Shown here piece after piece: positions 3,364 through 52,510 of a stretch of 52,510 bases of DNA (within the stretch, counting starts at the first letter, position 1; the number at the start of each line of letters is the position of its first letter). Both the position numbers and the translations under genes were made by a program. This stretch comes from a virus (Duplodnaviria > Caudoviricetes), in IMG/VR virus record IMGVR_UViG_3300033067_002302, positions 1 to 52,510 of that record. One strand, given 5' to 3'. Below the pieces are notes generated by a model. That model was not told the origin of the DNA, ran no database searches, and saw nothing but the letters and a program-made list of their open reading frames with translations.

Positions 3364-3448
3364 CGAGGAGCGCGCCGGGAGGACCGGACGGGGCTCGCCG
3401 CCCTGGGCGCGCATCGCGGCACGGCGCCGCGTGGAGGGTCGAGAGCAC

Positions 3449-16103: not shown

Positions 16104-16118
16104 GCGCAGACCTCGTCG

Positions 16119-28107: not shown

Positions 28108-28553
28108 GCCGCGCGCCGTCGCCGGCCGGGCATGAGCTGCGGACCGGTCGGCGCAGCGCCCTCCACCGGCGCCTCGCTGGGCTCGCTGGGCGGCGGAGCG
28201 TCGGGATCGGGCGTGGGCTCGGTGGGCTCGGGCGCCTGGATGCGCCACGGCGCGACGGGGAGCCGCGCGAGGAGGTGGAGCGGGGCGACCGCATCCACGC
28301 ACTCCGGCATCGTGAAGCCGCGCGGCAGTTCGCCCCACGGCTCGAGGTAGAGGTCGCGCCCGTGCTCGGCGATGAGCAGGCGCAGCGGGCGCCCACACAC
28401 CGGCTCGGTGGCGAGCCCGCCCACGAACGACACCAGCCCGAGCGTCCCGCCGAACGTCGGAGACCGATGCACGAGGCGCCAAGCGCCCTGCATGATCCCG
28501 TTCGCGTCGATCGGGAGCTGCTCGAAGGTGGTGCCGTTCATGTCGTGGCTCAC
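28104..28553 (-). CDS. hypothetical protein after major capsid gene
   Basis: Coupled ORF (GTG 28553 or ATG 28541) with Pro-rich C-terminus. Confidence 0.6.
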   Translation of the reverse strand: MSHDMNGTTFEQLPIDANGIMQGAWRLVHRSPTFGGTLGLVSFVGGLATEPVCGRPLRLLIAEHGRDLYLEPWGELPRGFTMPECVDAVAPLHLLARLPVAPWRIQAPEPTEPTPDPDAPPPSEPSEAPVEGAAPTGPQLMPGRRRRAA

Positions 28554-29779
28554 GTGGTGAGGAGCTGGCTCGCGCGGGCGAGCGAGAGATCCGAGCCGCA
28601 CGCCATCGCGCCGAAGAACGCGAGGCGACGACCGCGGTTGCTGCTCGTCTGCACCTGGCCGAGCTCGTAGATGCGGAAGCCCATGACGCTCACGTTGCGC
28701 GGGTCCGCGCTCACGTCCTGCGTCGCGCCGCCGAGCGCGCCCATGTAGACGCCGCCCTCCTCGGAGAAGTTCACGCAGTACACGCTCGACAGCGTGCTGC
28801 TCGCGCCCTTCGACTCGTTCGAAGCGACGTTGTCGTTCGCGAGGATCGGGTACCCGTCGAAGGTCGGCACCTGCATGCCGTTCGCGAGCACGATCTGCGG
28901 GCCGGCCGCGTTCGTCGCGCGGACGAGCGCGTTGTACTTGCGGCGCATCGCGAGGTTCATCACGAACGCGATCTTGCCGTCGCGCACCTTCACCGCGTCG
29001 CGGATGGTCTCGAGCACGCCGAAGGTGAGCGAGTCGCCGTCGGTGCCGGCCGCCGCCGAGACCTGGCCGGGCGCGCAGAGCGCCGCGAGGCCGTCGAAGT
29101 CGTTGCTCGCCGTGAAGGCGATGGTGCGGATCTGATCGACCGACGCCTGCGCGGCGGTGATCGTGAGCTTCACCCACTTGCTCGGGTCCTGCGACTTGAG
29201 CGTGTAGGTGCCGTCGGCCGAGACCGTCACGTCCGCGCCGAACGTCTGGTCGTCCGGCGCCTGGAACGCGAGCTTGGTGCCCGAGTTCGTGTAGCGCAGC
29301 AGGCCCGGCCCGCTGCGGTCGCTCGTGCGCACGAAGGGCGAGCACGAGACGAACACGGCGTACGCGCCGGCGTTGAACGCGCCGATGGTCGCGCCGCTCA
29401 CCGAGCCGCCCGAGACCATCTTGCCGGCCAGCGTCAGGCCGGCCGCCTTGAGCTTCATCATCGTCTGCGTCTCGAGCGGCGAGACGAGATCGCTCATGTT
29501 CTCCTGCGCGAAGTTCGGCACGTAGAGGTCGGCCGTGTACTCGCGCTTCGACACGGTCACGCGCTCGGTGCGGCCCGTGGACTCCGCGGGCGCGCCGCCG
29601 GGGGCGATCGCCGCGAAGCTGCCGAGGGCGGCCTCACGCGGGTACGAGAAGCCCTCACCGGCCTTCGGCACCCACGGCACGATGCCGAACATCTCGTCGC
29701 TGGTGACGATCTGCTTGAGCACGGCGGTCTGGTAGGCGTTGCGGCTCGCGCGCATCGCATCGAAGAGGGTCTCGGCCAT
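28550..29779 (-). CDS. major capsid protein (HK97 fold)
   Basis: Follows scaffold; FSYPRE, FDGL, FVMN..MRR, FDGYPI..ND, SSVYCV motifs; highly biased codons. Confidence 0.88.
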   Translation of the reverse strand: MAETLFDAMRASRNAYQTAVLKQIVTSDEMFGIVPWVPKAGEGFSYPREAALGSFAAIAPGGAPAESTGRTERVTVSKREYTADLYVPNFAQENMSDLVSPLETQTMMKLKAAGLTLAGKMVSGGSVSGATIGAFNAGAYAVFVSCSPFVRTSDRSGPGLLRYTNSGTKLAFQAPDDQTFGADVTVSADGTYTLKSQDPSKWVKLTITAAQASVDQIRTIAFTASNDFDGLAALCAPGQVSAAAGTDGDSLTFGVLETIRDAVKVRDGKIAFVMNLAMRRKYNALVRATNAAGPQIVLANGMQVPTFDGYPILANDNVASNESKGASSTLSSVYCVNFSEEGGVYMGALGGATQDVSADPRNVSVMGFRIYELGQVQTSSNRGRRLAFFGAMACGSDLSLARASQLLTT

Positions 29780-31360: not shown

Positions 31361-31552
31361 TCAGGTCGTCTGGTGGAGCAAGAGGGCGTCGATGCGCCCG
31401 GTGGTCTCGAGCACGTGCTCGTCGATGCGTTGGCGGCCCGTGGCGAGCGCGATGCCGCGCTCCTCGCGCATCACGATCACGCTGCCGTCGGCGTGCTCCT
31501 CGATCGTCCAGCGACGGAGGGGCTCGTCCACGGTGATGCGCTTCTCGCTCAT
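31361..31552 (-). CDS. hypothetical protein
   Basis: ATGA overlap with portal stop. Confidence 0.6.
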   Translation of the reverse strand: MSEKRITVDEPLRRWTIEEHADGSVIVMREERGIALATGRQRIDEHVLETTGRIDALLLHQTT

Positions 31553-33360
31553 GCGTCGGTCGCGCCAGGCGGGTCAGGAGGCTCAGCGAGCGGCCCGTCC
31601 TTCATCGCACCGGACGACTTCGCCGCGCTCGGGCTCGCTGGCATCGGCGAGAGCTCTTCGGCGACGTACCAGTGATGCACTTCCTCGGGGTTCTGATCGA
31701 ACCGAATCCCGAGAGCAGGTCCGCCGATCTCGACGAGCGTGCCCGGGCCCGAAGCCTCGGACATGTGCGCGGCCGTCGGGCCGACATACACGCGCGATCC
31801 GATTGCGGCGGGCGTTGCCGACGAGTCCGCCATCGTGGAAGGCTGCGCAGCAGTGGAAGGCTGCGGGGGCGCGGTTTCCTGCGCCACGAGCTCGCGCTCG
31901 ATCTTCGCCATCGTCGTGCTCGACAGCTGCGGGAGCACGCGCTGCACGAGGCCGCGCTTGATGGCGATGGTCGCGGTGGGCCCGAGCTTCGCGCTCACGG
32001 CATCCATCGCGTTCTTGATGTCGCTCGTCACGTCGTCGATGTCGAACGACTCGGGCGCCGTGACCCGGTTCTTCCGGGCGATGTCGGGGTGCTCGCCCTC
32101 GCCGAGCGAGACGAGCTGCGCGAGGTCGCTCTCGCCGCGTGCGATCTCAGAGCCGAAGTCGGCGATCGCGCGGTTCGTCGAGGCGAACTCGTACGCGCGC
32201 GCGACGCCGCTCGTCGGTGCTCCGACGGGGCGCGTGTACTCGGCGCGCGCCATGCGGAACATCTCTTTGACCGTCGCCTCGACGCGCGCCTCGAGCGTGC
32301 TCGCGACGCTCGCCGGCGGGGCGAGGTAGTAGTGCACGTTCTTCGCCTGCGGATCGAGCGTCAGGCCGTTATCGACGCCAACCTGCACCTCGCCCGTCTG
32401 CGAAGGGTTGTTCTGCGCCATCACGAGGATCGCGAACACCTGCCCGCGCACGTGCTCGTCGAGCTCGCTGACGAGGTTGAAGAGCCGGCGCCCCTCGAGC
32501 GCGATCTGCGCGTGCATCGGCAAGCCGAACACCGCGGAGTCGCAGTTGGGCACGCGCTTGTGCCGGAAGATGGCGATCGGCACGCGGCCGAAGCCGTGCG
32601 GCACCACCACGGGACCGGTCACCGCCTTGGTGCCGCTGCCGTCCTTCGACACCGTGTAGCGGGTCGCGTCGGTCGCGGTCCAGATGGTGTACTCCTCGAC
32701 CTCCTGGCGCTCGGAGTCCCAGCTCTCGACCTCGGTGCGGCACGTGCGGACCTTGGCCCATTCGAGCCGGCCGCCGCGCTCACACCACTCGAGCAGGTTG
32801 CCCGGCGCGAGCGGATTGACGATGAAGTGATCGAGCCCGAGCGCGTCGATCTGCGCGCGGCTCATGCCCTCTTCGACCTCGGGGCGGTCGAGGAGCACCG
32901 GCGCCCAGCCACCGATCGCGGCGCGGAGCACCACGCCGGGGCGCATGTCGTCCCACGTCGTGCCCTGCCCATCGATGTCGTCGCGCCACGAGCGCACCGC
33001 CGCGCTCTCGCCGTCGCGGATGAACGGCTTGCGGAGCAGGTAGCTCGTCTTGAGGTCGGTGAGCGGCTCGACGTAGTTCAGGTAGTGCGCGACGGCCTTG
33101 CGCGCTTGGTACTTCGCCTCGTCCTCGCGCGGGTGCTTGTCGAGGTAGCTCCCCGACGACGAGCGCAGGCTCAGCCAGTACGGCTGGACCGACGCGTAGA
33201 GCTCAGCGGCCGGCCCCCAGTACCCACTCGGCGGCTGCTCCACGCCGCCCTGGAACCCGCCCGCGCCCGTGTAGGCGTCGGCGAGGAACGTCAGCCAGCG
33301 GCACTCCTTGTCGTAGCCGCACCGCGTGCGCTCGAGCTGTTCGAGCAGCGTGTCGGCCAT
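31549..33360 (-). CDS. portal protein
   Basis: HPRED..KY..RK..A.Y.NY, H.FGRVP, SGVARAY.F motifs; position between terminase and scaffold. Confidence 0.88.
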   Translation of the reverse strand: MADTLLEQLERTRCGYDKECRWLTFLADAYTGAGGFQGGVEQPPSGYWGPAAELYASVQPYWLSLRSSSGSYLDKHPREDEAKYQARKAVAHYLNYVEPLTDLKTSYLLRKPFIRDGESAAVRSWRDDIDGQGTTWDDMRPGVVLRAAIGGWAPVLLDRPEVEEGMSRAQIDALGLDHFIVNPLAPGNLLEWCERGGRLEWAKVRTCRTEVESWDSERQEVEEYTIWTATDATRYTVSKDGSGTKAVTGPVVVPHGFGRVPIAIFRHKRVPNCDSAVFGLPMHAQIALEGRRLFNLVSELDEHVRGQVFAILVMAQNNPSQTGEVQVGVDNGLTLDPQAKNVHYYLAPPASVASTLEARVEATVKEMFRMARAEYTRPVGAPTSGVARAYEFASTNRAIADFGSEIARGESDLAQLVSLGEGEHPDIARKNRVTAPESFDIDDVTSDIKNAMDAVSAKLGPTATIAIKRGLVQRVLPQLSSTTMAKIERELVAQETAPPQPSTAAQPSTMADSSATPAAIGSRVYVGPTAAHMSEASGPGTLVEIGGPALGIRFDQNPEEVHHWYVAEELSPMPASPSAAKSSGAMKDGPLAEPPDPPGATDA

Positions 33361-35233: not shown

Positions 35234-35610
35234 GCCGCTTCGCTCCCTTCGTTGTCGTCGCCGTCGTCCACACCGCCGCGCTCGCACCACCGCGCGAACG
35301 CGCTGTCCTCGATCAGCTCGTCGAGCTCCACACCGCGCACCGGCAGGAGCGACGGCGCGAGCTGCGCCGGCGTCCGGTACAGCAGCTCGATGTCCTCGCG
35401 CGGCGCCGCGTCGCCCCACAGCACCCACGCCAGCACGCGCACCGCAGCGAGCGTCGACGCATCGACCACCACCCACGTCACGCCCTCTGCGGCGCTGAAC
35501 AACGCCACGCACGGCCGGCCCTGCTCGTCGTTCGAGACGACGAAGCACGCCGACCCGCGCTTGTGCTGCGCGCGCGCGTCGCTCGGAACGATGGCGCCGA
35601 GCTCGCTCAC
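35230..35610 (-). CDS. hypothetical protein
   Basis: GTGA coupling with terL stop. Confidence 0.6.
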   Translation of the reverse strand: MSELGAIVPSDARAQHKRGSACFVVSNDEQGRPCVALFSAAEGVTWVVVDASTLAAVRVLAWVLWGDAAPREDIELLYRTPAQLAPSLLPVRGVELDELIEDSAFARWCERGGVDDGDDNEGSEAA

Positions 35611-37046
35611 AAGCCCCTCACGTGGAACGAGCGCACCGGCCCGGACGAGGTGAGCACCTGGAACGCGAGCGAGATCGCGTCCACGTCGTCCTTGTAGCGA
35701 CCCGACGGAAACGCCGAGACGCGCGAGAGCAGTCCAGCGGTCCAATCGCCATCGACCACCACGTGCACGCGTCCCTGCTCGACGTGAGGCGACCACACGC
35801 GCGCGTAGGCCTCCTTGTCGCGCGAGGCGAGCACGGTGTGCACCGTGAAGCCCATGCCGCCGAGCTTCGCCGAGAGCGCGTGCGCCTGCGCTTTACCCGC
35901 CTGACCGGGGTCCTGCCAGAACGCGATCTCGACGTTGCGACCGTCGGCCATCGCCGTGCGCTCGATGAGCGCATCCACCTGCGATGGGCCGGCGCGGAGC
36001 GATGCGAGGTGCGTGATCGCGTACTCGTCGGCGGGCTCTGCCTGACCGGGCGCGAGGAACTGCGGACGCGCGTTGAAGCGAGCGAGCTTCACGCCGCGCG
36101 TCCAGTCGGGGTCGGGGTTCGAAGTCGTCGGCTCGGTCGCCGCGAGATCCCACGCGCGCACCACCCGACGCACGCCCGGGATCTGCGCAGACGAGACCGC
36201 GCGCTTGAACCACTCCTCGCGGAAGTAGCCGCCGCTCTTCATCGAGCGCCGCCAGCGGCCCTCCTTGAGCCGCGCGCGATCGACGGCGGTGAGCGCGTCG
36301 AGCTTAGTCTCGTAGTCGGGGTCGGCCTGCGTCAGCGTCGGGTTGTCCGTGCGCGCCGACGGGATGAACGTGAACGACAGCGCGCGCTTGCCCGGATGCC
36401 GCGCCTCGAGCGCCGCGCGATCGCTGTCGAGGTCGAACGTGTCGTCCTCGCGTCGCACGAGCCATCGCGTCTGCCCGCATCGCTCCGGGATCGGGAGCCC
36501 GCTCTCCGCGTCGATGAACCACGCAAGCAGCTCGAACACCCAGTGTTCGGGATCGGGGTTCAGCGTCGCGATCACGTGCGGGCGCACTCCGCACGTCGAG
36601 CGAAGGCGGCTGAACAGGAACCAGAACTGCTGCGCGGTGAACTCGGTCAGCTCCTCGAACACGATGCACGCGTACGCCTTGCCCGCGTGCGCGCGCTCGT
36701 CGCCCTCGTGCTGCAGGTGGCGCATCTCGATGAGCGATCGGTGCTCGGGCCATCGCCACGAGAGCGTGGGCGACTCGCGACCGTTGCCGCCGAGCACGCC
36801 CATGAGCCGCTTCGACTGCTCCCACGCGCTCTCGGCGCCCTGCAGATCGACGGCCTCACGCCGGAACAGGATCCCCGTGTAGCCCGGGACGTTGTACCAC
36901 CGCCCGAGCGCGAACAGCGCACCCCACGTCTTGCCGCCGCCGCCCTGGCCGCCGAAGAACGTCATGTCGCAGTCGCTCTCGAGCAGCTGCGTCTGCGGGC
37001 CCGGGTGCGGGCGGAGCACGAGCTCCTGCTCGACGTGTTCGCTCAC
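35607..37046 (-). CDS. terL: terminase large subunit
   Basis: Walker A GGQGGGGKT, Walker B IVFEELT, TLNP, nuclease RAWDLAA and KDDVDA. Confidence 0.97.
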   Translation of the reverse strand: MSEHVEQELVLRPHPGPQTQLLESDCDMTFFGGQGGGGKTWGALFALGRWYNVPGYTGILFRREAVDLQGAESAWEQSKRLMGVLGGNGRESPTLSWRWPEHRSLIEMRHLQHEGDERAHAGKAYACIVFEELTEFTAQQFWFLFSRLRSTCGVRPHVIATLNPDPEHWVFELLAWFIDAESGLPIPERCGQTRWLVRREDDTFDLDSDRAALEARHPGKRALSFTFIPSARTDNPTLTQADPDYETKLDALTAVDRARLKEGRWRRSMKSGGYFREEWFKRAVSSAQIPGVRRVVRAWDLAATEPTTSNPDPDWTRGVKLARFNARPQFLAPGQAEPADEYAITHLASLRAGPSQVDALIERTAMADGRNVEIAFWQDPGQAGKAQAHALSAKLGGMGFTVHTVLASRDKEAYARVWSPHVEQGRVHVVVDGDWTAGLLSRVSAFPSGRYKDDVDAISLAFQVLTSSGPVRSFHVRGL

Positions 37047-37600
37047 GACGCCTTGGCCTCCGGATCGTCCGTGCTCGCGTTCGCTTCGATGGGCGCCGGC
37101 GACGACGGCTGCGGCCCGAGCTTCGACGGCGGCACCATCAGCACCACGTGCACGCTGCGCGTGTTGACGTTCACGTCGACGGTGGGCTTGGCCGCGTCGA
37201 GCAGCTCGCCGTTCATGCGCGCGATGTCCATCGCCGCCTTGCGTCGCGCGTCGTGCGTCGGCGGCCCGAAGATGACTCGCCCGTCACGGATCCCGATCGG
37301 GGCGTGCATGTCGCCGCGCGCGATCGACGTGAGCAGCTCGAGCCGCTCCTCGCGAGTCGCGATGTTCGCGCGCGTCCGCTGACGACCGAGCTCCGCGATC
37401 GCCGATGCGACCTTGGGATTGGCTACCAGCTTCGCGCCCGCGACGCTGAGCGTTCGATCGTCGCCGGCGTATCCCGCCACCCGAGCCGCGTGCGTCGCGT
37501 TGCCGCTCGCCGCGTACGCCTCGACGAACCGACGCGCGCGCTCGGTGAGCGGACGCTCGCGCTTGGCGCTCTCGGCGCGCTTGGGCTTGCTCGTGCTCAC
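37043..37600 (-). CDS. terS: terminase small subunit
   Basis: LTERARRFVEAY....NATHAARVAGY...A.KL..NPKV motif. Confidence 0.92.
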   Translation of the reverse strand: MSTSKPKRAESAKRERPLTERARRFVEAYAASGNATHAARVAGYAGDDRTLSVAGAKLVANPKVASAIAELGRQRTRANIATREERLELLTSIARGDMHAPIGIRDGRVIFGPPTHDARRKAAMDIARMNGELLDAAKPTVDVNVNTRSVHVVLMVPPSKLGPQPSSPAPIEANASTDDPEAKAS

Positions 37601-38586
37601 GCGGCGTCGCCCTTCACGCGTCGGTAGCACCGCTCGGCTTCGGGGAGGGCCTGGTCGGACTCCCACTCGGCCCACTTGATGCGCCCCTCGAACCCGGTCG
37701 TGGTGTCGAGCACCCAGACGGTCGTTGGGGTTCTCTTCGGGACGACCGAGAGCGGCGGGGCCCCCGCGCTCACACGCGGGGTGCCGCGACCAGGTTGCTC
37801 ATGATGGTCGACGTTCCCTGATCCCGGTGTGTGTTCCGTAAGGAACACACCGGGATCGGGATCGGGATCGGGGGGGGTGTTACTAACGCCGTTACCAACA
37901 GCGTTACTACCCCCCTTGTAACGCCGTGACGTGTTTTCGTAACGCTGTGACAGACCTTCGGAGGTTCCAGAGTCGTTGCCATCACTTGCGGCGTTCCGTC
38001 GGTCGTCTCCGCGACCTGTCACGCTGTTACCGACGCTGTTACCGATGCTGTTACGTGAAGCGTTACTCGGCGCCGCACTATTCTGGCCCTTGTAACGCCG
38101 TGACAACCCGGGTCGTGACGGCGTTACACCGCCCTCTGTCACGCCGTTACCACCGGCGTTACCACCTCCGTTACCGCCCCCGTTACCCCCCTTCCGCTGG
38201 TCGTCGCGGAGCTTGCGTTCGCGGTACTCGCGCACCCGCTCTCGGGTCGCCCTGCGCTTCGCGCCCACCTCTTCGGAGGTCGGCTGGTACTCCGACCAGT
38301 CGTGCATCGCGTAGCCCTCCGGGACGCGCTCCAGGAGGCCGACGGCCACGAGGGCGTCAGCGCACGCCACCGGGTCGGTCTCGCCTCTACGGAGGCGCCT
38401 GATGGCCACCACGTCGATCGTCCCGTCGGGGAGCGCTCCGCCCTGCGCGAGCTGCCTCGAGCACCACGTGCCGATGGCGAGCCACACGAGCACGCAGTCG
38501 GCGACCATGCGGGGCCCGTGCTCGCGCTCGAGCGCGTCGAGCTTCGCGTGCTCGCAGAACCCATCGTCCACCTTGAACCACGTCAC
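37597..38586 (-). CDS. replication initiator protein (lambda O-like role)
   Basis: WFKVDDGF..H.K ... Y.MHDW.EYQP ... R..R.R motifs; contains iteron-like repeats. Confidence 0.8.
   Translation of the reverse strand: MTWFKVDDGFCEHAKLDALEREHGPRMVADCVLVWLAIGTWCSRQLAQGGALPDGTIDVVAIRRLRRGETDPVACADALVAVGLLERVPEGYAMHDWSEYQPTSEEVGAKRRATRERVREYRERKLRDDQRKGGNGGGNGGGNAGGNGVTEGGVTPSRPGLSRRYKGQNSAAPSNASRNSIGNSVGNSVTGRGDDRRNAASDGNDSGTSEGLSQRYENTSRRYKGGSNAVGNGVSNTPPDPDPDPGVFLTEHTPGSGNVDHHEQPGRGTPRVSAGAPPLSVVPKRTPTTVWVLDTTTGFEGRIKWAEWESDQALPEAERCYRRVKGDAA
37879..38188. repeat. putative replication origin: clustered GTTAC/GTAAC/GTGAC iterons, often with 12-bp period
   Basis: Many copies of (C/T)GTTAC(C/T) in both orientations in a locally AT-richer stretch inside the initiator gene. 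Confidence 0.7.
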
Positions 38587-39962
38587 TCGCCACCTCCGTA
38601 GTCTCCGACCTCGTCGAGCTCCGCCTCGTCTGCGACGCGCAGCACGCCGTTGCTGTGCATGTCGCGGGTGAGGATCAACGGGGCCATGGATGGCCCGTAG
38701 TTCGACTTCGCGACGCTGAGCTCCCAGTAGTTGTCGACGACCTTCCGCTTTCGGTTCGTCGCGGGCCCGAGCGTGCACGACCAGCGAAAGCCGTCGTTGA
38801 AGGCGGTCACGCCGCGCGCGCTCGATGCGTCGAGCTTGCGACCGTCGCGCATGGTCTTGCTGGTGTGGTGAAGGGCGAGCACCGTGGGGCTGCCCGGCAC
38901 CTGCATGAGGGACTCGATGGTGCTCACGACGAGGGTTGCGATCTGGTTGTCTCGCTCTGCCTCGGGCGGCGAGAGACGTGCGATGGGGTCGATCACGACC
39001 AGCGCCCACTCGCGGTTCGCCGAGCGCAGGTAGCGGCGCAGCGCGCGCATGAAGTCGCTCTCGCGGAGGTTGCCGTCCTGGTCCGCCTCGAGGAGCGCCG
39101 AGCGCTTGCCCGCGCGGCACTGCAGCCAGATCATCGACGCGGCGCGATCGCGCTCCTCGCGCGTCAGGCCGAGAGCCTCGGCGGCGTAGTGCATGCGGCG
39201 GATGACCTCGTCGCGCTCCTCTTCGGCGAGTACGAGGGCGACCGGGCCTGGCTCGGGGATCGAGATGCTGTCGAGCCAGCGCCGGCCGGTTGCGACGCAG
39301 AGGGCCAGCTGGATAGCCAGGAACGTCTTGCCGACGCCTCCCGCCGACGCGAGCATCCCGGCGATCCCGCGAGGGAGCCACGGCAGCGACGTGCCGTTGG
39401 GCTGCTGCATGCGCAGGAGCCATCGCCGCGCGGGCGGAGAGACCCCGATGGGGTCCTCACCGAGGTCGCGCACCCATGTGCCGCCGGCAAGGGGGCCCTC
39501 GTCGAGCTCGGCGGCGAGGATGGCCTCGAGGTCGCTGGTCAGTGCGTGAGCGACCGCCGGATCGCCGGAGCGCAGCGCCGCGTCGTGCTTGCGGACCGTG
39601 TCGCGCACGAGACGAGTGCGATGGTCGCTCGCGATGATCTCGACGTAGCTACGCACCGCCGCGAGCGAGGGCGGCTCGCTCGTGAGCGAGAGCAGGTGGT
39701 TGTCGCCGACCTCGGCGTAGAGCTGGCGGTCGGTCAGCCAGCCACGGATGGTCACGCTGTCGACGGTGCCGCCCGCCGCGTGGATGTCGATCGCGGCCTC
39801 GAGCACGCGCCGGTTGCGACGGTCGTGGATGGCGGCGATGGCGGGCACATGCTGGTCGAGCACGCGCTGATCGCAGAGCACGCATGCGAGGTAGGCCCGC
39901 TCGGCGGAGAGCTTCTCCTTGCGGTGGTCGGCGAGCTCGATGGGCTTGGCGGCTGCGCTCAT
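38583..39962 (-). CDS. replicative helicase (DnaB N-terminal domain plus RepA/AAA_25-type ATPase)
   Basis: AERAYLACVL...VDSVTI; Walker A AGGVGKT; AEE; VVIDP; LHHTSK; ARG. Confidence 0.88.
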   Translation of the reverse strand: MSAAAKPIELADHRKEKLSAERAYLACVLCDQRVLDQHVPAIAAIHDRRNRRVLEAAIDIHAAGGTVDSVTIRGWLTDRQLYAEVGDNHLLSLTSEPPSLAAVRSYVEIIASDHRTRLVRDTVRKHDAALRSGDPAVAHALTSDLEAILAAELDEGPLAGGTWVRDLGEDPIGVSPPARRWLLRMQQPNGTSLPWLPRGIAGMLASAGGVGKTFLAIQLALCVATGRRWLDSISIPEPGPVALVLAEEERDEVIRRMHYAAEALGLTREERDRAASMIWLQCRAGKRSALLEADQDGNLRESDFMRALRRYLRSANREWALVVIDPIARLSPPEAERDNQIATLVVSTIESLMQVPGSPTVLALHHTSKTMRDGRKLDASSARGVTAFNDGFRWSCTLGPATNRKRKVVDNYWELSVAKSNYGPSMAPLILTRDMHSNGVLRVADEAELDEVGDYGGGE

Positions 39963-41126: not shown

Positions 41127-41782
41127 GTGCCCTCGACGATGAGCGCGAGGCCGCGCGGCGTGCGGATGGCGGAGATGACATTGTAACCGAGCAACGTGAG
41201 TGCGTCGGCGGGCGACGCGAGCGATGACGCATCGAGGCTCGGTGCCGGCGCCGGCGCACGTTCGAGTTCGGCGATCGTTGTGGCGATCTCGTCGAGCGAG
41301 GTCGTGGGCGCGCTCTCCTTCGCCGCGCGCTTCGCGTGCCCCTTCGGTTGCCGATCGCTGCGCGGCGAGGTGAGCGCGCGCTCGAGCGGCCATCCCTTGG
41401 TGAGCCGGAAGTGCAACGCCTGAGCGGTGATGCCGAGCTCCTCCGCCCACTGCGCGATGGTCGCCGTGCGCCCCTGGAACGTGATCGTCTTGTCCTTCGC
41501 TACCATGTCCCTATCCCCTTCCTTCGTGGCGCTCGGAGGCGCGCTGGTGCTCGACGCAGCGACGGCCGTGATCGGCGTGCCGTCCGGCCAGTGCCACGGC
41601 TCCTCACCGCGGCTGTGCGCACGACCGATCTCGCAGTTGGCGCAGGTGCGATCGTCGAGGCAGCGCTGGCCCCGCTTGTCGGGGCCCTTGGCCGCGAGGT
41701 GATGGCGCTTGCCGCACGCCGCGCGCGTGATGCGCACGTTCTTCGGCACGCACGCGAACATGACCGGAAGGGCGATCTTCAT
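41123..41782 (-). CDS. Cys-rich protein with HTH DNA-binding motif
   Basis: ITFQGRTATIAQWAEELGI...L.FRL.KGWPLERALT motif as found at C-termini of phage HNH proteins. Confidence 0.65.
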   Translation of the reverse strand: MKIALPVMFACVPKNVRITRAACGKRHHLAAKGPDKRGQRCLDDRTCANCEIGRAHSRGEEPWHWPDGTPITAVAASSTSAPPSATKEGDRDMVAKDKTITFQGRTATIAQWAEELGITAQALHFRLTKGWPLERALTSPRSDRQPKGHAKRAAKESAPTTSLDEIATTIAELERAPAPAPSLDASSLASPADALTLLGYNVISAIRTPRGLALIVEGT

Positions 41783-42441
41783 CGGTCGGCCCTCTTCGGC
41801 GGCACGTAGTAGCTCTGCCGCACGAGATCCTCTTCGCCGTCCTGGCGGGGCACGAGGCGCGGCACCACCTCGACAACGACGCAGTGCTCCTGCCCCGTCG
41901 ATCCGTCGGGCGAGAACGAGATGCGCGCGGGCACGTGCATCTCGCGCGTGCGCCGCATGTGCGCCCAACCGCTTTCCCAGCGACCCTTCGTCACGAGCCC
42001 GTCGAGCGAGATGATCCCGACCGCACGGGGCGCGAGCTCGATCGCGCGACGCAGAAAGTCGGTCTCGTGCTTCCCCGACCACGGCGGGTTGCCGATGGCG
42101 ATGTCGAACGTGCTCGTGCGCATCAGGGAGACGAGCGCGCGATCGAAGAAGTCGGCGCGGACGACCTCGCAGCGATCGCCGACACGTGCGCGCAGACGCT
42201 TCTCGATGCGGGGATCGATCTCGACGGCGACGACCGTCGCGCCCATACCGAGCGCCGCCAGCGTCAGCGAGCCGAGACCAGCGCCGAAGTCGATCACGCG
42301 CATGCCTGCGCGGATGCCGGCCCAGCGCACGACCGCTGCAGCGAACCGCGGATCGGTCCACCACTGATCGACCTCGCCACCGGGCGTGCTCACGGCATGC
42401 CGCTTGTCCACGCCGCGCACGATCTTGGCGGTGCTGCTCAT
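41779..42441 (-). CDS. SAM-dependent amino-methyltransferase (probable DNA N6-adenine MTase)
   Basis: QWWT, motif I DFGAGLG, VEID, DF, motif IV GNPPW. Confidence 0.85.
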   Translation of the reverse strand: MSSTAKIVRGVDKRHAVSTPGGEVDQWWTDPRFAAAVVRWAGIRAGMRVIDFGAGLGSLTLAALGMGATVVAVEIDPRIEKRLRARVGDRCEVVRADFFDRALVSLMRTSTFDIAIGNPPWSGKHETDFLRRAIELAPRAVGIISLDGLVTKGRWESGWAHMRRTREMHVPARISFSPDGSTGQEHCVVVEVVPRLVPRQDGEEDLVRQSYYVPPKRADR

Positions 42442-42707
42442 GCCGCCCTCCTCCTGTCGCTGCGACGCGTGCGGGTGCGCTCGAGCCGGAGCCCGCCGTC
42501 GGCCTCGCGGACGTAGAGGCAGACCGTCTCGCCACGGCGAAGCCAGCGACGATCGAGTAGGCGCTCTGCCGTCGCGATGGTGCGGACGTGCACGCGCCCG
42601 TCGATGGAGCTGTCGAGCACGGCGGAGCACGCGCGCAGACGCGGAGCCTCTTCGGCGCGCGCAGCGCGGCGCACGGTGAGATCGACGTGCGGTAGAGCGA
42701 GCGTCAT
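42438..42707 (-). CDS. hypothetical protein
   Basis: ATGA-coupled ORF with GGAGG RBS. Confidence 0.55.
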   Translation of the reverse strand: MTLALPHVDLTVRRAARAEEAPRLRACSAVLDSSIDGRVHVRTIATAERLLDRRWLRRGETVCLYVREADGGLRLERTRTRRSDRRRAA

Positions 42708-43000
42708 CGGTCGCCTCCCGAGCGGCGAGCGCGCGCTGAGCGCGCCTGCGCGAGGGATTCGCGATCGGCCGAGAGCTCGAGGATCTCGTGCATGACAGCG
42801 AACGCCGCGCCGTGGAGATAGACGGCGAGCAGGCGCCAGCGAGCGCCCATCGCATCGACGACACCGAGCTGCAGCGCGAGGTGGACGACGTGGGCTGCGC
42901 GAGCATCGGTCGAGCGCACCAGATCGAGCGCCGTGAAGATCGGACGCACCGACTTCGGCAGCTCGATCACGAAGAAGAAGCGACGCGCCTCGGTCGTCAC
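42704..43000 (-). CDS. hypothetical protein
   Basis: GTGA-coupled ORF with GGAGG RBS. Confidence 0.55.
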   Translation of the reverse strand: MTTEARRFFFVIELPKSVRPIFTALDLVRSTDARAAHVVHLALQLGVVDAMGARWRLLAVYLHGAAFAVMHEILELSADRESLAQARSARARRSGGDR

Positions 43001-45500: not shown

Positions 45501-46241
45501 GTGAAGGCTCGAGCCGCGGTCGTGGCGCTCGCGCTCGGCGGATGTTGTAGCGGGGCGCCAGTTCCGCCGACGACGGCGCCACCGCCCACCACACAGGACG
45601 CGTTCCCCACGGACGTGGCCAGCGCCGCACCGTTCCTGTCGCCGGATGATGCTCGTGATCTGCAGTGGCTCCTCGACCATCGTGACGACGTGGAGGTGCC
45701 GCTCTACGAGGCGGCCACGCGCGGAGCGACGAACGCTCAGGACGCACTGGTCAGCGAGTCCGCGTTCCATCACGCGCTCGCGATGACCAACATCGACGTG
45801 GAGATCGCGGCGATGCAGCGGCGACTCGACGCGCACGAGATCCCAGCCCGCTTCGAAGAAGACTTCCGCGCGTCCATCGCGTGGGCTCAGTCCGAGCGGT
45901 GCATGATCGATCATGAGCAAGCGATCGTTGATCGCTTCGGCCGACGCGCCCGACGCGAAGAGAGCGTGCTCGAATGGATCGAGCGAACGGATCCCGACAC
46001 TTCGTCGGTTCCGTACAGCGAGGCGTGCGAACCGCTCGTGAACGGGGCCGCGCGGTTGGTGTCGCCCATCACGATCGGCTGGGGATGGGCTGCGTCGATC
46101 GTCGCATGCCCGACCCGTCCCGATGCGCTCGACTTCAATCCGCGCATCGCGATGTGCTGCACACCCGATCGCATCACCGAGACCATCGCGCGCCACCGCC
46201 ACCTTGGACCGCGCACGCCTGATGACCACGTGTGCTTCTAG
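45501..46241 (+). CDS. putative lipoprotein (possible superinfection exclusion or accessory)
   Basis: MKARAAVVALALGG-C lipobox; located in the immunity region. Confidence 0.65.
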   Translation: MKARAAVVALALGGCCSGAPVPPTTAPPPTTQDAFPTDVASAAPFLSPDDARDLQWLLDHRDDVEVPLYEAATRGATNAQDALVSESAFHHALAMTNIDVEIAAMQRRLDAHEIPARFEEDFRASIAWAQSERCMIDHEQAIVDRFGRRARREESVLEWIERTDPDTSSVPYSEACEPLVNGAARLVSPITIGWGWAASIVACPTRPDALDFNPRIAMCCTPDRITETIARHRHLGPRTPDDHVCF

Positions 46242-46843
46242 GCGGCGAGCACGAGCACGCGGCGAAAATGTCCGTCGATGACGGGCCACGCACCCGTGAG
46301 AGCGTCTTCGCGCACCGGCGCGCCGCGCTCGAGCGCAGCATCGACGAGCGATCGCTCTCGCTCGATCGGCAGGCCCGGCGGTCCGGCGCGGTATCGGAAG
46401 CGGCCCTGGTCGTAGACCGAGAGAGCCGCCGAGCGGATGTCCACGATCCGGCGCGCGAGCAGCTCGGCGCTCGCGTAGATGTGCTTGCAGCGGAGCCGTT
46501 CGAGATCCCACCCATCGCGTAGCTCGCGGTCGAGAGCCCGTCGGGGCACGAGCAGCGCGGCGGCGAGGTAGTTCGCGGCGCGCTCGCTCTGTCGCAGGCC
46601 GAAGCGGTCGATGAGGATGTGGGCGAGCTCGTGGCAGATGGAACCGTGGATGCGGGCAACGCGGGCCTCGGCGCCCACGACGACCTGCATCCCGCGGCAC
46701 AGGTTCCGTCCCCGCGGCCCCCACCGCACCTCCACGCCCAGCAGCCCAGCCAGCTCGATCGCATCGACAGGCGGGTCGTCGAGCCCTGTTTCCCCAAGAA
46801 TATAGGCCGCAATCCCCTCAAGCTCCCTCACGTCCATGCCCAC
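46238..46843 (-). CDS. ImmA/IrrE family metallopeptidase
   Basis: PPVD..ELA, SICHELAH (HExxH), ERAANYLAAALLVP. Confidence 0.9.
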   Translation of the reverse strand: MGMDVRELEGIAAYILGETGLDDPPVDAIELAGLLGVEVRWGPRGRNLCRGMQVVVGAEARVARIHGSICHELAHILIDRFGLRQSERAANYLAAALLVPRRALDRELRDGWDLERLRCKHIYASAELLARRIVDIRSAALSVYDQGRFRYRAGPPGLPIERERSLVDAALERGAPVREDALTGAWPVIDGHFRRVLVLAA

Positions 46844-49999: not shown

Positions 50000-51006
50000 T
50001 CGAGATGGCGAACGTTCAGACCAACGGCAACGGACAGATCCAGAAGCGCGAGGCCAGCGGGGTGGCGAAGCAGCGAGAAGAGCACCCGCTGATCAGCCTG
50101 CTCTCGTCGAAGGGCATGCAGGCGCAGATCGCGGCGGCGCTCCCGAAGCACGTCACGGCAGAGCGGATGGCGCGCGTGGCGCTCACGGCGCTCCGCACGA
50201 CGCGCGACCTCGACAAGTGCACCACGCCGAGCTTCCTCGCGTGCGTGATGCAGGCAGCGCAGCTCGGTCTCGAGGTCAACACGCCGCTTGGGCACTCGTG
50301 GCTCATCCCGCGCAAGGCCAAGGGGCTCAAGCCAGATCAGCGCGAGTGCACGCTCATGATCGGCTATCAGGGCCTCATCGATCTCGCGCGTCGCTCGGGG
50401 CAGGTGCTCGGCATCTGGGCGTTCCCCGTGTACCAGGGTGACGCGTTCAAGGTGGCCTACGGCCTGCACCCGAGCGTCGAGCACGAGCCTCGGTTCGAAG
50501 CGGCGCGGATCGCATCGAAGGGCCAGAACAACACGCTCAGGTACGTGTACGCGGCAGCGCGCCTGCGCGACAACGACGATCCGGTGTTCGTCGTGCTCAC
50601 GTGGAGCGAGGTCGATGGCTACCGCAAGCGCGGCGCGTCGGGGCAGGGCTTCTCGACGCCGTGGGACACCGACTACGAGGCGATGGCGCTCAAGACAGCG
50701 GTGCGACGCCTCTATCGCTGGCTGCCGAAGAGCATCGAGATGGCGCGCGCGCAGGCGATGGACGAGGCGTCGGAGCTCGGCCTGGGTCAGACGTTCGATC
50801 CGGTCATCAGCGACACCATCGAGCGCGGCGGAGGCCTCGAGCTGACGGAGGGGATGCCGGCGGAGACGCTCGACACGGCCGACGTGCCCGAGAGCGCGCA
50901 GCACGCACAGCACATCGACCAGAGCGGTCGCCCCGGCAGCTCGCCCGGCACCACGCGCAGCTACGACCCGTCGGAGCAGGACGCTCCGCCGCACGACGAC
51001 GAGTGA
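49996..51006 (+). CDS. recT: RecT-family ssDNA annealing recombinase
   Basis: SFLAC..QAAQLGLE, IGYQGLIDLARRSG, PW.TDYEAMALKT.VRRL..WLP.SIE. Confidence 0.95.
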   Translation: MIEMANVQTNGNGQIQKREASGVAKQREEHPLISLLSSKGMQAQIAAALPKHVTAERMARVALTALRTTRDLDKCTTPSFLACVMQAAQLGLEVNTPLGHSWLIPRKAKGLKPDQRECTLMIGYQGLIDLARRSGQVLGIWAFPVYQGDAFKVAYGLHPSVEHEPRFEAARIASKGQNNTLRYVYAAARLRDNDDPVFVVLTWSEVDGYRKRGASGQGFSTPWDTDYEAMALKTAVRRLYRWLPKSIEMARAQAMDEASELGLGQTFDPVISDTIERGGGLELTEGMPAETLDTADVPESAQHAQHIDQSGRPGSSPGTTRSYDPSEQDAPPHDDE

Positions 51007-51013
51007 GGCGATG

Positions 51014-51209
51014 GACGCGGGCCCGCGCCCGCGTCGTGGGCTCGTCGGGCCGCTGCGCGCTCAGGTCTGGGAGCGCGGCGAGCACCACCCGTCACGCCGC
51101 CGCCGAATGGTCGGAGGCGCCGAGACGGCCGACGAGCGCACGACGGGTGCGCGATCTCGCAATCCCCGCGTGCGGCTCCCTCGCCCGGAGTCCCTCCCCA
51201 CCGCACGCG
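51014..51209 (+). ncRNA. putative structured RNA leader upstream of the pentamer array
   Basis: Stems GACGCGGGC/GCCCGCGTC (51014-51035), GCGCAC/GTGCGC (51136-51152), CGCGTGCGG/CCGCACGCG (51167-51209). Confidence 0.4.
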
Positions 51210-51220
51210 TGTTCTCCAAC

Positions 51221-51305
51221 ACCGCTTCGCACCGCAACGCTCCGCCCGGCAGCGCGCCGCCCCTCACCGCAACGTTCCGCTCCGCATCGCTTCTCACTTC
51301 ATCGA
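51221..51305 (+). repeat. pentamer array (NN-CGC)n, putative guide RNA of a Cas7-like system
   Basis: ACCGC TTCGC ACCGC AACGC TCCGC CCGGC AGCGC GCCGC CCCTC ACCGC AACGT TCCGC TCCGC ATCGC TTCTC ACTTC ATCGA; 11 of the first 14 units end in CGC. Confidence 0.85.
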
Positions 51306-51347
51306 CCTGACCGATCAGCAACCACGCACGAAAGAAAGCAGGACCAA

Positions 51348-51938
51348 GTGAACACTCTCACCCTCAAGATCACCGGAACCGCCCCCATTCTCCTCAACAA
51401 CGCCCGTCTCGTGAACAAGCTCGATCCGATGTCGAAGGCACTCGCCATCGCCGTCTCGAAGATGAAGAAGGACAAGACCGACGAGGCCGTCATGCAGGCG
51501 GCGCGCATCGAGTGGGAGGCCGGGCTCTACATGGACCCGAAGCACGGCCCGGTGATCCCCGGCCTGAACGTCCAGCGCGCGATCGTGGAAGGCGCGCGGC
51601 AGACGAAGAACGGCAAGAGCGTGGAGCGCGGCGTGCGCATCACGGAGATCTCGCTTCCGCTCAAGTACAAGGGGCCGCGCGAGGTGGACGCGATGTGGGA
51701 CGATGGTCGCTTCGTCGATCAGCGTTCGTGTGGAGTGGTCGGCCGTCGCGTCATCCGCACGCGTCCGGTGTTCCCCGAGTGGTCGGTGGAGGCCACGTTC
51801 GTGTTCGATCCGGAGCAGATCGACCGCGACACGCTGATCGAGGCGGCGCGCACGGCCGGCACGCGGATCGGCATCGGCAACTTCCGGCCCGACTGCGGCG
51901 GCATCTTCGGCACGTTCGACGTGGACGTGGTGGCGTGA
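51348..51938 (+). CDS. stand-alone Cas7/RAMP-like protein (196 aa)
   Basis: N-terminal strand LKITGTAPILL, PVIPG.N...AI.EGA, RTRPVFPEW, C-terminal G-loop GIGNFRPDCGGIFGTFDV; AGGA RBS. Confidence 0.75.
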   Translation: MNTLTLKITGTAPILLNNARLVNKLDPMSKALAIAVSKMKKDKTDEAVMQAARIEWEAGLYMDPKHGPVIPGLNVQRAIVEGARQTKNGKSVERGVRITEISLPLKYKGPREVDAMWDDGRFVDQRSCGVVGRRVIRTRPVFPEWSVEATFVFDPEQIDRDTLIEAARTAGTRIGIGNFRPDCGGIFGTFDVDVVA

Positions 51939-52483
51939 TGTTCGACGACCCGATCTCGTCGGAGGAGGAGTCGCGGGAGACGACTGCTGACCCTGGGCCG
52001 GCCGAGATGCCGGGATGGGATCGAGTCCTCGCCGACTTCGACAAGGAAGGCTTCAAGCCGGGAGACGTGGTGTCGGACGCGTGGATCTCCCACCACCTCC
52101 GCATCACGGCGCCTGGCGACCTCCCGTTGGGCATCACTCCACGCGAAGCGATCAGCGCTCGCGACAGGTGGCAGCGCACGTGCACGGCGTTCGTGGAGCG
52201 CGTGCGCTCTGACCGGAAGGTCCACATGTCGAGCGTGGCCGATGGCTACGTCGTGCTCGACGACCGCGCCGTGGGTGACCACGAGATGCGGAAGTTCACG
52301 AGCGCGCTCGTCGCGCACTCGGAGCGCACCGCACAGCGCCTCGACCTGGTGAAGACGGAGGCGCTCTCGCAGGAAGAGCGCGATCGCCTCGTGCATCAGA
52401 AGCAAGTGCTCGCGCTCTTCCAGCGCACCGCACTGCCCAAGTTCCGCAAGAGCATCGGCTCGGGCTCCGGCTCGAATGGATAG
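51938..52483 (+). CDS. hypothetical protein coupled to the Cas7-like gene
   Basis: TGATG overlap; 181 aa, helical C-terminus. Confidence 0.7.
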   Translation: MFDDPISSEEESRETTADPGPAEMPGWDRVLADFDKEGFKPGDVVSDAWISHHLRITAPGDLPLGITPREAISARDRWQRTCTAFVERVRSDRKVHMSSVADGYVVLDDRAVGDHEMRKFTSALVAHSERTAQRLDLVKTEALSQEERDRLVHQKQVLALFQRTALPKFRKSIGSGSGSNG

Positions 52484-52510
52484 CTCTTGTCGCCGCTCCG
52501 CATCGCGCCG
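52484..52510 (+). repeat. start of a second NN-CGC array, truncated by the window end
   Basis: ...GC CGC TC CGC AT CGC GC CG; CGCTCCGCATCGC is identical to 51278-51290. Confidence 0.6.

Follow-up and report, generated by a model that had tools for sequence, protein, structure and literature searches.

VIPR (Viral Interference Programmable Repeat) systems were described in two preprints of 2026 (10.64898/2026.04.26.720920, 10.64898/2026.04.26.720927). According to the first, a VIPR system silences genes by means of one Cas7-like protein, which works with a helper gene and with guide RNAs made of five-base repeats (10.64898/2026.04.26.720920); an earlier note on the DNA analysed here had likened the locus to these systems, in agreement with that text. 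In the two preprints, the guide reads double-stranded DNA and skips one nucleotide of it at a time, and the cryo-EM work has the constant trinucleotide held jointly by two adjacent protomers (10.64898/2026.04.26.720920 / 10.64898/2026.04.26.720927 pair). Further traits by which a VIPR system is recognised are a vrRNA of about 100 nt that co-purifies with Vipr and an invariable structured 3' tail behind the repeats; most are encoded by viruses or proviruses, though this is not obligatory. So far, the VIPR systems studied have mostly been those of E. coli and Pseudomonas phages, whose handle is GGY.

The window (the whole stretch of 52,510 nucleotides that was analysed) corresponds to a whole virus record. 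Judging from its sequence, the locus found near its end is very probably a VIPR system of a tailed phage, with an unusual handle. This kind of system is already known and the locus adds no new kind; among the VIPR types it appears to be most like type II (SUSP1 / P. fulva clade). It represents a clean, minimal VIPR example from a high-GC environmental phage.

Organisation of the locus

The VIPR parts were assigned, with high confidence, as vipr, a vap1-like gene, one upstream vrRNA and at least one more vrRNA from position 52491. The features are, in order:

51007..51219, plus strand: leader between recT and the array, presumed vrRNA promoter region
51220..51304, plus strand: putative vrRNA repeat tract of 17 pentamers, register Y-NN-CG (constant CGY, variable NN)
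51305..51347, plus strand: spacer of 43 nt, which carries the vipr ribosome-binding site AGGA and would house any vrRNA 3' tail
51348..51938, plus strand: vipr, 196 aa, single-RRM RAMP (homology to SUSP1 Vipr; Cas7-family fold model)
51938..52483, plus strand: vap, vap1-like accessory gene, 181 aa (homology to the gene after vipr in phage HY02)
52491..52510, plus strand: start of the second (downstream) putative vrRNA array, four perfect YNNCG units, then the end of the record

The upstream tract is read as the units CACCG, CTTCG, CACCG, CAACG, CTCCG, CCCGG, CAGCG, CGCCG, CCCCT, CACCG, CAACG, TTCCG, CTCCG, CATCG, CTTCT, CACTT and CATCG. A pyrimidine comes first in 17/17 units and 13 follow YNNCG (CGY/NN); the four without CG are one canonical YNNGG (CCCGG) and three degenerate units. 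Elsewhere in the window, on either strand, 17 units contain at most 8 perfect ones, and the maxima in 100 first-order Markov versions of the window had a mean of 8.2 and a largest value of 11, against the 13 observed. Likewise, a 60-nt sliding count reached 10 of 12 in-phase YNNCG units at the tract only (maximum of 6 elsewhere in the 52.5-kb window), and a motif-free periodicity score of at least 2.5 was obtained, within the window, only at 51214-51304. The array of about 17 pentamers with constant CGC and variable dinucleotide that had been claimed is therefore real. Tandem Repeats Finder called no period-5 array, even with its score set as low as possible, and only a period-15 row at 51234-51262; this is expected and is not evidence against the array, because two of the five bases (40% of positions) are variable. 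The ORF running across the array (51011-51310) was taken as spurious, because no peptide repeat matches the 5-nt repeat and the DNA has 71% GC.

Folded as RNA, the tract is less structured than its shuffles (z=+2.2, with an equally good or better fold in 198 of 200 shuffles), and the fold of 51200-51360 presents no stable element, with no hairpin or pseudoknot tail evident after the upstream tract. No sigma-70-like promoter site was found within 50900-52510, and none of the sequencing runs listed with the stretch is on record as RNA. No variation occurs inside the array among the metagenome contigs compared; the leader segment 51096-51164 is the sole part varying between samples (X7 contigs), and metagenome contigs from the runs of two other studies (X2, X5) carry the locus unchanged.

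The vipr gene starts at GTG 51348, with AGGA 7-10 nt upstream. Searched by phmmer against the PDB, its product returned a single chain, labelled 'SUSP1 Vipr protein' (36pp_D, E=5.3e-25, query residues 2-194 on chain residues 2-189); it also matches phrog_4652 (E=1.9e-49) and has 2812 representative homologues at E<=1e-3. Pfam and PADLOC gave no match for Vipr or vap. The protein model (pLDDT 94.2, pTM 0.87) was compared by Foldseek, as had been proposed for Cas7, Csm3 and Cmr4, and matched 35 PDB chains at E<=1e-3, including Csm3, Cmr4 and type VII Cas7 chains. This Cas7/Csm3-type fold, together with the homology to SUSP1 Vipr, bears out the earlier claim of a RAMP/Cas7-like protein. The RAMP motifs then quoted are all found in the translation of 51348-51938 (TAPILLNN, GPVIPGLN, RTRPVFPEW, GIGNFRPDCGGIFGTF), and the family-invariant residues G10, R137, R139, P140, W145, G175, R180 and G188 are intact.

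The same protein had been called 'lone', which does not hold: the ATG of the following gene (51938) overlaps the vipr TGA (GTGATG), indicating translational coupling, and this gene is a vap1-like accessory gene. Indeed, in a BLASTP comparison it is 28% identical over 125 aa (E=9e-10) to the gene that follows vipr in phage HY02, and HY02 Vipr matches SUSP1 Vipr over its full length (E=1.5e-127), which makes HY02 a SUSP1-type phage. A match to phrog_5926 was also found (E=1.3e-6). The vap model (pLDDT 83) comprises an alpha/beta domain (27-107) and a helical hairpin (108-176). Foldseek with this model returned nothing at E<=1e-3, its weak rows including winged-helix DNA-binding domains, and a wide VIA-align search gave a match limited to the generic helical hairpin (108-181). 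An assignment of vap to DUF5655 was rejected (16.2 bits, below the 24-bit cut-off).

After the TAG of vap (52481-52483) come the units CGCCG, CTCCG, CATCG and CGCCG, so that the coupled gene and the second array announced in the earlier note are both present. The first bases of the window are coding, with no continuation of the downstream array there, and a contig from another run extends ~8.4 kb beyond 52510. The order array-vipr-vap-array is the same as that described for SUSP1, and the vap1-like homology and the architecture (one guide upstream, guides downstream) agree with type II VIPR. The locus is minimal, with two coupled genes, vipr and one vap, and no CRISPR array or cas gene was found in it. 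In line with the absence of CRISPR-Cas stated before, the Rfam scan of the window returned no family, CRISPR direct repeats and ribozymes included, and PADLOC, run on the 150 longest of the 202 ORFs of at least 100 aa, returned no core cas gene.

Tailed-phage genes for TerL, portal, major head protein, tape measure and baseplate are present in the window. The record is complete-looking (CheckV completeness estimate 98), and its best cultured-phage terminase match is 38.6% identical. The vipr locus adjoins a RecT/YqaJ recombination module. Among the ORFs scanned, PADLOC matched only a DEDDh exonuclease, a methyltransferase and, weakly, a CapP-like protein.

The CGY handle and the residues facing it

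The constant motif is not GGY (YNNGG) here, YNNCG being found in 13 of the 17 units and YNNGG in one: base 1 of the handle is C, and G2 and Y3 are retained. The discovery preprint admits 'a related consensus', with the alternatives NNNGG, YNNNG and NNNNG (10.64898/2026.04.26.720920), and YNNCG is covered by YNNNG, of which it is a special case. In a full-text search, none of the papers containing 'vrRNA' had 'YNNCG', 'CGY' or 'CGYNN'; 'YNNNG' occurs a single time among them, and this is in the discovery preprint.

In SUSP1 Vipr, as given in the cryo-EM preprint, H17 and D177 hydrogen-bond G1, R138 and W178 hold G2, and R179 holds Y3 (10.64898/2026.04.26.720920 / 10.64898/2026.04.26.720927 pair). 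Aligned with the window Vipr, H17 is replaced by N17, D177 by N178 and W178 by F179, and R138 (R139) and R179 (R180) are kept; at the G2 and Y3 positions the residues (R139, F179, R180) are conserved or conservatively changed. Handle base 1 has changed along with the two residues by which it is read in the solved structure, which gives a directly testable hypothesis on handle reading. From this alignment we infer that the N17/N178 pocket would read C at handle base 1, and the pairing of handle and pocket may be of use in designing VIPR guides that are orthogonal to one another.

The five closest relatives (62-98% identical) all have N17, N178 and F179. Among the window protein and 155 database homologues, the N/N pair is limited to the window clade (6 sequences), against 119 H/D and 10 H/E. 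The CGY handle of the N/N clade is known from this single locus: viral contigs scanned with the single window protein gave no closer relative with DNA context, those scanned with the clade-only alignment (A2) gave no closer relative, and the best matches were 46% identical in the metagenome scan and 40% in the genome scan (6 loci).

To relate residues and handles, a cross-table was built on 155 distinct Viprs, 135 of them with arrays of at least 9 units. The gene-strand handle is GG-x in at least 94 of these 135. Whenever D or E at the G-loop position was combined with an array of at least 9 units, handle base 1 was G (103/103 distinct Viprs), and none of the 25 CGC-handle Viprs has D or E there (R in 21, T in 3, N in 1). 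A simple residue-base rule has exceptions, namely GGC arrays at two Q17/T loci (L011, L079), at one H/A locus and at one H/N locus (L200). A DNA-only scan for CGC arrays, made blind to genes, was also carried out; of the 80 loci fetched, 49 have Vipr-profile ORFs, and where the CGC array lies on the same strand (26 distinct proteins), the G-loop position is occupied by R in 23 of them and by T in 3. The CGY handle is not unique to the locus, CGC/NN arrays being common beside more divergent Viprs (Arg or Thr). The suggestion that CGC marks a distinct variant is thus right in that the departure from GGY is real, and goes too far if taken as something found here alone.

In trees (FastTree, IQ-TREE), the window clade falls inside the large GGY group, near loci L006, L007 and L008, with weak deep support, and the CGC-type sequences form three separate groups. 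The AU test did not reject a tree that unites the window clade and the Arg-type clade (p=0.535), and the claim of independent origins of the C handle was dropped on this account. Tentatively, and with more doubt than confidence, the window clade (N17/N178, CGY) may be seen as a natural 'handle switch' in the SUSP1-like part of the Vipr family, in which the protein would have gone from GGY to CGY guides through two substitutions in the G1 pocket. If true, GGY-type Viprs of rival phages could not read the guides of the clade, and satellites that carry GGY vrRNAs alone could not use its protein. The constant motif would then itself evolve as a lock-and-key in conflicts between phages, and would open a way to orthogonal VIPR tools.

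Proposed mechanism, targets and alternative readings

By homology with SUSP1, the plus-strand tract would be transcribed as a vrRNA along which Vipr protomers would polymerise, one per pentamer. Each constant trinucleotide would flip out and be gripped by a pair of neighbouring protomers; the earlier idea that each subunit grips one CGC departs from the published structure, in which two adjacent protomers share it. The 17 NN dinucleotides would be presented jointly and would pair with double-stranded DNA carrying them separated by one skipped base. Binding would shut down the target's transcription; the likeliest target is a gene belonging to a competing phage or to a satellite.

A search for a self-target in the window gave no match (best 20/34). 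In IMG/VR, three 8-unit sub-patterns hit 21, 23 and 91 stretches (135 matches), and the best full-length score was 29/34, in a tail-fibre-like ORF of contig L300 with the skip base at wobble positions; all others scored 25 or less. This candidate was rejected: 29/34 is marginal after allowing for 135 matches (rough binomial estimate), and the contig is unlikely to share a host with the window phage because its GC content is 45%, against 71%. In the reverse test, in which 603 guides of other loci were compared with the window, the top scores equalled those of reversed and complemented controls.

This lack of a significant target match is one of the points that would suit a decaying or inactive VIPR remnant, with homologous genes and a guide that no longer works; the four units without CG, the missing tail structure after the upstream tract and the missing promoter-like site would suit it as well. 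We regard such decay as unlikely, given that the family-invariant residues are intact, that the clade is kept at 62-98% identity with N17, N178 and F179 fixed, that the reading frames of vipr and vap are open and show translational coupling, and that independent samples have the same locus without change. If the guide were made from the minus strand, with an RNA handle GCG/NN, the pocket argument would fall away. Periodicity alone cannot tell the strand, and exceptions to co-direction exist (one cross-table locus with an opposite-strand array reads GCC, and the arrays of L052 oppose vipr). This reading is nevertheless very improbable: when the 5-nt periodicity was checked beside homologues, as had been proposed, arrays were found at 7/7 annotated phage Vipr loci examined, all on the vipr strand, and at most of ~190 loci from viral, genome and metagenome collections, nearly all of them co-directional with vipr. 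Moreover, the plus reading retains G2 and Y3 (Y in 17/17 units), whereas the minus reading has neither Y nor GG, and the downstream array directly follows vap on the plus strand, as in SUSP1.

Finally, the tract might act as DNA, as iterons or a protein-binding site of the RecT/YqaJ module, and lie beside vipr by coincidence. Its position in a 341-bp gap directly after recT fits with this. However, like tracts flank Vipr genes in unrelated neighbourhoods (tail genes, DNA polymerase, repressors, ligase), a second tract follows vap here, and the recombination genes are absent from the other loci, which leaves this explanation barely credible beside that of a vrRNA-encoding array of a VIPR system.

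Comparison with known systems

Read as a VIPR system, the locus can be set beside three groups. The most remote one is that of the class 1 CRISPR effectors. Cas7-family subunits polymerise along guide RNA at a fixed period, flipping out bases. The window Vipr shares the RRM core, the G-loop and the thumb fold with Csm3, Cmr4 and type VII Cas7 (Foldseek E from 5e-5, TM ~0.45-0.55), but no sequence similarity to class 1 Cas7 subunits is detectable by phmmer in the PDB. Unlike those effectors, the locus has no crRNA repeat handle, Cas5, Cas6, Cas10, Cas8, CRISPR array or adaptation genes. The period also differs, being 5 nt with three bases displaced in VIPR and 6 nt with one in Cas7 backbones.

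The CGC/NN loci of divergent Viprs in IMG/VR (L190 and L211 with Arg; L179 and L188 with Ser17/Thr) resemble the locus in their gene-strand CGC/NN arrays and in the loss of the acidic G-loop residue. The Arg-type Viprs further share the 'GIGxFRPxxGG' shape of the G-loop, and at some of their loci the tract runs straight into the vipr ribosome-binding site; the S/T-type loci share a vap1-like gene (iterated search). These CGC-type Viprs are, however, far more distant: phmmer from the window protein gives at most 38 bits for the Arg type and ~70 for the S/T type, against 183 for the best GGY type. The arrays of the divergent loci are long and hold several guides, set apart by AT-rich or hairpin separators, and at L179 and L188 GC hairpins come after the tracts, unlike the upstream tract here.

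The closest comparison is with the type II VIPR of SUSP1 (PDB 36pp). The handle is CGY here instead of GGY, and H17 and D177 are both Asn. The window Vipr has a four-residue insertion in the G-loop (DCGG), and the pseudoknot of the SUSP1 vrRNA tail has no counterpart seen after the upstream tract. SUSP1-like proteins are only 33% identical to the window Vipr, and the window phage has 71% GC. On the other side, the two Viprs are of the same length and domain order and can be aligned end to end, and the residues binding G2 and Y3 are conserved (R139, F179, R180 here). Both systems are phage-encoded and without cas genes, both use pentamer repeats of three constant and two variable bases, and both combine a vap1-like gene directly downstream of vipr with one vrRNA upstream and one or more arrays downstream, all on the same strand.

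Pentamer arrays and phage context

The gap of 341 bp between the recT stop (51006) and the GTG at 51348 ends in a run of pentamers, each composed of a constant trinucleotide (the handle) and a variable dinucleotide (NN), and a shorter run follows the two genes of the locus:

51220-51304, + strand, upstream array of 17 successive pentamers in the register Y-NN-C-G, final part of the gap
51348-51938, + strand, vipr
51938-52483, + strand, vap (accessory gene)
52491-52510, + strand, downstream array of four perfect units past the stop of the second gene (52481-52483), cut by the end of the record

Both arrays announced in the earlier note, one of about 17 CGC/NN units and one after the coupled gene, proved to be real. 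In the upstream array, C or T comes first in 17/17 units and CG last in 13/17, the others being CCCGG (with a GG end) and three degenerate units (CCCCT, CTTCT and CACTT). This count of 13 compares with at most 8 across the rest of the window and, in 100 first-order Markov simulations, with a mean maximum of 8.2 and a largest value of 11. Likewise, 10 of 12 in-phase YNNCG units per 60 nt are found here only (maximum elsewhere in the window: 6), and a motif-free periodicity score designates 51214-51304 as the sole such region in the window. Indeed, chance at high GC does not account for the tract. Tandem Repeats Finder, run on the window, did not call it, as expected because two of the five repeat positions vary. 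The downstream array does not resume at the start of the record, where the sequence is coding.

The record is linear (CheckV completeness estimate of 98, GC content of 71.1%) and encodes a tailed phage, with the following genes:

13680-17693, - strand, baseplate wedge proteins
20086-22068, - strand, tape measure
28550-29779, - strand, major head protein
31549-33360, - strand, portal
35607-37046, - strand, large terminase
37597-39423, - strand, replication initiator

The VIPR (Viral Interference Programmable Repeat) locus lies at the right end, directly past a recombination module (DnaQ-like exonuclease, YqaJ and RecT). The full stretch 50900-52510 occurs in sequencing runs from wastewater and riverine metagenomes of three studies, some of which are possibly the source of the record. 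Run contigs from two other studies match it letter for letter. The sole variation seen among run contigs concerns 51096-51164, upstream of the array, in contigs of one run (X7). A contig of 10,229 nt from run X2 covers the stretch at its own positions 232-1842 and extends about 8.4 kb past the last base of the record, so that the DNA molecule of that sample does not stop at 52510.

Elsewhere in the window, the replication-initiator gene contains three blocks of 12-nt tandem repeats with a common GTTACC (37879-37907, 38021-38054 and 38144-38191), which may be iterons of an origin. PADLOC matched a DNA methyltransferase-like ORF (41779-42903, - strand; mad2 / type II MTase, E=1.8e-19) and, weakly, a CapP-like one (46238-46840, - strand; E=8.6e-7).

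The Vipr protein and its accessory gene

In the available part of its text, the preprint 10.64898/2026.04.26.720920 describes VIPR as a Vipr RAMP, usually one accessory gene (vap) and guide RNAs (vrRNAs) made of 9-16 YNNGG repeats, then a structured tail; double-stranded DNA is read by the NN dinucleotides with one base skipped between them, and in nature the systems are directed at competing phages and satellites. The 196-aa protein encoded at 51348-51938 matches no Pfam family and is a member of phrog_4652 (E=1.9e-49), a family of unknown function. Searched with phmmer against all PDB chains, it gave one match, 36pp_D ("SUSP1 Vipr protein", from an Escherichia phage), with E=5.3e-25, query residues 2-194 being aligned with chain residues 2-189. 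Its AlphaFold2 model, built on a 35-sequence alignment (pLDDT 94.2, pTM 0.87), was matched by Foldseek to the Cas7-family backbone subunits Csm3, Cmr4 and type VII Cas7 (35 chains at E<=1e-3, TM of about 0.45-0.55), in a library up to April 2026 from which the Vipr entry was not among the matches. The predicted fold and the 36pp_D match both favour the RAMP/Cas7-like protein that had been claimed. Among 1.84 billion representatives searched, the family counts 2812 clusters at E<=1e-3, 1612 at 1e-10 and 177 at 1e-30; the window lineage is small, with one 50%-identity cluster (76% identical) and a next relative at 48%.

The vap product (181 aa), whose ATG start overlaps the vipr stop, is 28% identical over 125 residues (E=9e-10) to that of the gene after vipr in Escherichia phage HY02. 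The Vipr of HY02 aligns end to end with that of SUSP1 in 36pp (residues 1-195 on 1-195, E=1.5e-127), and from synteny we infer that this HY02 gene corresponds to SUSP1 vap1. When the genes that follow vipr at the retrieved loci were searched iteratively, the window vap was linked to those of many other VIPR loci; a direct phmmer search gave three matches only. The vap model (pLDDT 83) contains an alpha/beta domain (27-107) and a long helical hairpin. Foldseek returned no match at E<=1e-3, its weak rows including several winged-helix DNA-binding domains, and a wide fold search matched the hairpin alone, without identifying the fold.

Handle base and G-loop residue

According to the available text of 10.64898/2026.04.26.720927, SUSP1 Vipr binds as one protomer per repeat; H17 and D177 read the first handle base (G1), R138 and W178 hold the second (G2), the Y3 pocket includes R179, and the thumb displaces the GGY of the guide and one base of the target. 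By alignment, the window Vipr has N17 for H17, N178 for D177, F179 for W178, R180 for R179 and R139 for R138. Both G1 contacts are thus altered and the G2 and Y3 contacts kept, which fits a handle differing at the first base only. The five closest relatives (62-98% identical) all have N17, N178, F179 and a four-residue G-loop insertion ending in CGG. Considering the window and 155 database homologues, the N/N pair is found only in the window clade (6 sequences), versus 119 H/D and 10 H/E.

Five-nt arrays beside homologues, a check proposed in the earlier note, are present in each of the seven annotated phage loci examined (Gordonia, Mycobacterium, Pseudomonas and Escherichia), where they adjoin vipr on its strand with GGY/NN in 7/7. 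We pooled 80 viral, 6 genome and 58 metagenome loci with those of a gene-blind scan; the family profile detected 202 Vipr ORFs, and the 192 kept as near full length represent 155 distinct proteins. The handle was compared with the G-loop residue in 135 distinct proteins having arrays of at least 9 units, called on the gene strand. With D or E at the D177 position, handle base 1 is G in 103/103 proteins (mostly GGC, GGT or GGA, some GTT, GNT and GCA, and one GCC). At one locus (L052, 3601-3922) with N17 and the G-loop Asp kept, the gene strand shows four arrays of GCC-NN, equivalent to GGC/NN on the complement; these arrays are therefore on the other strand, the only clear case antisense to vipr.

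Among loci recovered by protein similarity, the CGC handle occurs in the window only. The gene-blind scan of IMG/VR (six CGC units spaced by NN) gave at least 136 stretches; in the 80 loci examined, a profile of GGY-type proteins detected a Vipr ORF in 49 (39 distinct proteins). Same-strand CGC arrays accompany 26 of the 39, with Arg at the D177 position in 23 and Thr (with Ser17) in 3. The other 13 have matches on the opposite strand only, mostly ordinary GGC arrays whose NN happen to be GC, and carry D/E (9), N (1, L200, with GGC arrays) or T (2, L162 and L216) or are truncated (1). CGC/NN guides are thus common in viral contigs and associated with loss of the acidic G-loop residue. GGC arrays are found despite the lack of an acidic residue at the Q17/T loci L011 and L079, one H/A locus and the H/N locus L200, which suggests that this loss is not enough for a C handle; from the sequences compared, it appears to be necessary. 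From one locus, we infer that the Asn/Asn pocket would read C. Of the leads obtained here, the most useful is that the first handle base and the G-loop residue go together.

The CGC arrays of the divergent groups include:

L190 1992-2540 and L211 1977-3047, strand of the divergent Vipr, long CGC/NN arrays, Arg-type
L179 452-2176 and L188 18-2036, CGC handle, S/T-type (Ser17, Thr at the D177 position; 60-69% GC)

Arg-type proteins have Arg in place of SUSP1 D177 and the G-loop GIGRFRPxxGG; their guides end ...CGCAACGCAACGT, after which comes a short AT-rich separator; the upstream tract of L211 continues directly into the vipr ribosome-binding site. This group is large (further contigs L165, L177, L184, L195 and L221). 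S/T-type tracts each precede a GC-rich hairpin and a conserved element with CTGGTGGGCTGA; by iterated search, a vap1-like gene is present at these loci too.

In both trees (FastTree, 160 rows; IQ-TREE, 60 rows), the window clade (support 100) falls inside the large GGY group, near Pseudomonas and SUSP1-like proteins, and the Arg-type and S/T-type clades stand apart from it, each well supported; deep nodes have weak support. The window Vipr scores 183 bits with the best GGY-type protein, about 70 bits with S/T-type and at most 38 bits with Arg-type proteins. Joining the window and Arg-type clades was not rejected by the AU test (p=0.535, the constrained tree being 1.4 log units better), so that the C handle may have arisen anywhere from one to three times.

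Other handles and separators were also observed. A low-GC clade (L048, L050, L051, L068 and L080, arrays at about 3100-3440) has the consensus GTT-NN, another variant, with the G-loop GLCDSRP and Ser in place of the G2-stacking Trp of SUSP1. In two vipr genes of this clade, a single in-frame TAA (L061 2630-2632, L081 2552-2554) interrupts an otherwise full-length and conserved frame; since L061 also uses TAA as its regular stop codon, a pseudogene or an assembly error appears likelier than recoding in both. In the Gordonia and Mycobacterium loci, GGY arrays are separated by elements resembling a tRNA T-arm and acceptor end (GGTTCGAnTCC, then a complementary stem):

L002 1660-1700 and 2990-3000
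L003 3725-3750 and 3870-3895
L004 2385-2415
L005 3090-3125 and 3210-3245

This suggests that tRNA-processing enzymes may free the actinophage guides. On these loci, ARAGORN called one odd tRNA-like gene only (L005 3283-3351) and Rfam called nothing.

Predicted guide RNA and comparison with known systems

Among the listed runs that contain the stretch, none is on record as RNA, and a sigma-70-like promoter was not found in 50900-52510. The RNA of 51200-51360 folds less well than its shuffles (z=+2.2), with no tail like the SUSP1 pseudoknot seen in the fold; such low structure suits a protein-coated guide. The guide has no self-match inside the window, and guides of other loci gave no match to the window above control level. 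Under the 1-nt skip rule, its best IMG/VR match reaches 29/34 (others at most 25) in a 45% GC contig (L300 301-350), with skip bases at codon wobble positions of a tail-fibre-like ORF (...NNLVNIQDVEAALGDFVNV...); given the GC mismatch with the phage, this candidate protospacer is probably due to chance.

The VIPR identification was supported on every point testable (Vipr homology, vap and arrays), and the locus is supported as a VIPR system of the kind published in 2026. Of the seven types defined (10.64898/2026.04.26.720920, available text), it is most like type II. Two later preprints are 10.64898/2026.10.15.759431 and 10.64898/2026.10.21.760802, and the CGY handle is absent by name from the searchable text of the VIPR literature. 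The Methods of 10.64898/2026.04.26.720920, in the text available, list the alternative repeats NNNGG, YNNNG and NNNNG, and the CGY handle probably falls under YNNNG. The distinct variant proposed in the earlier note holds in that the motif departs from GGY, but CGY as a handle already occurs elsewhere in nature, being frequent beside the more divergent Viprs of the blind scan. Finally, the SUSP1 system has a GGY handle, whereas the window has CGY and a G1 pocket changed to match.
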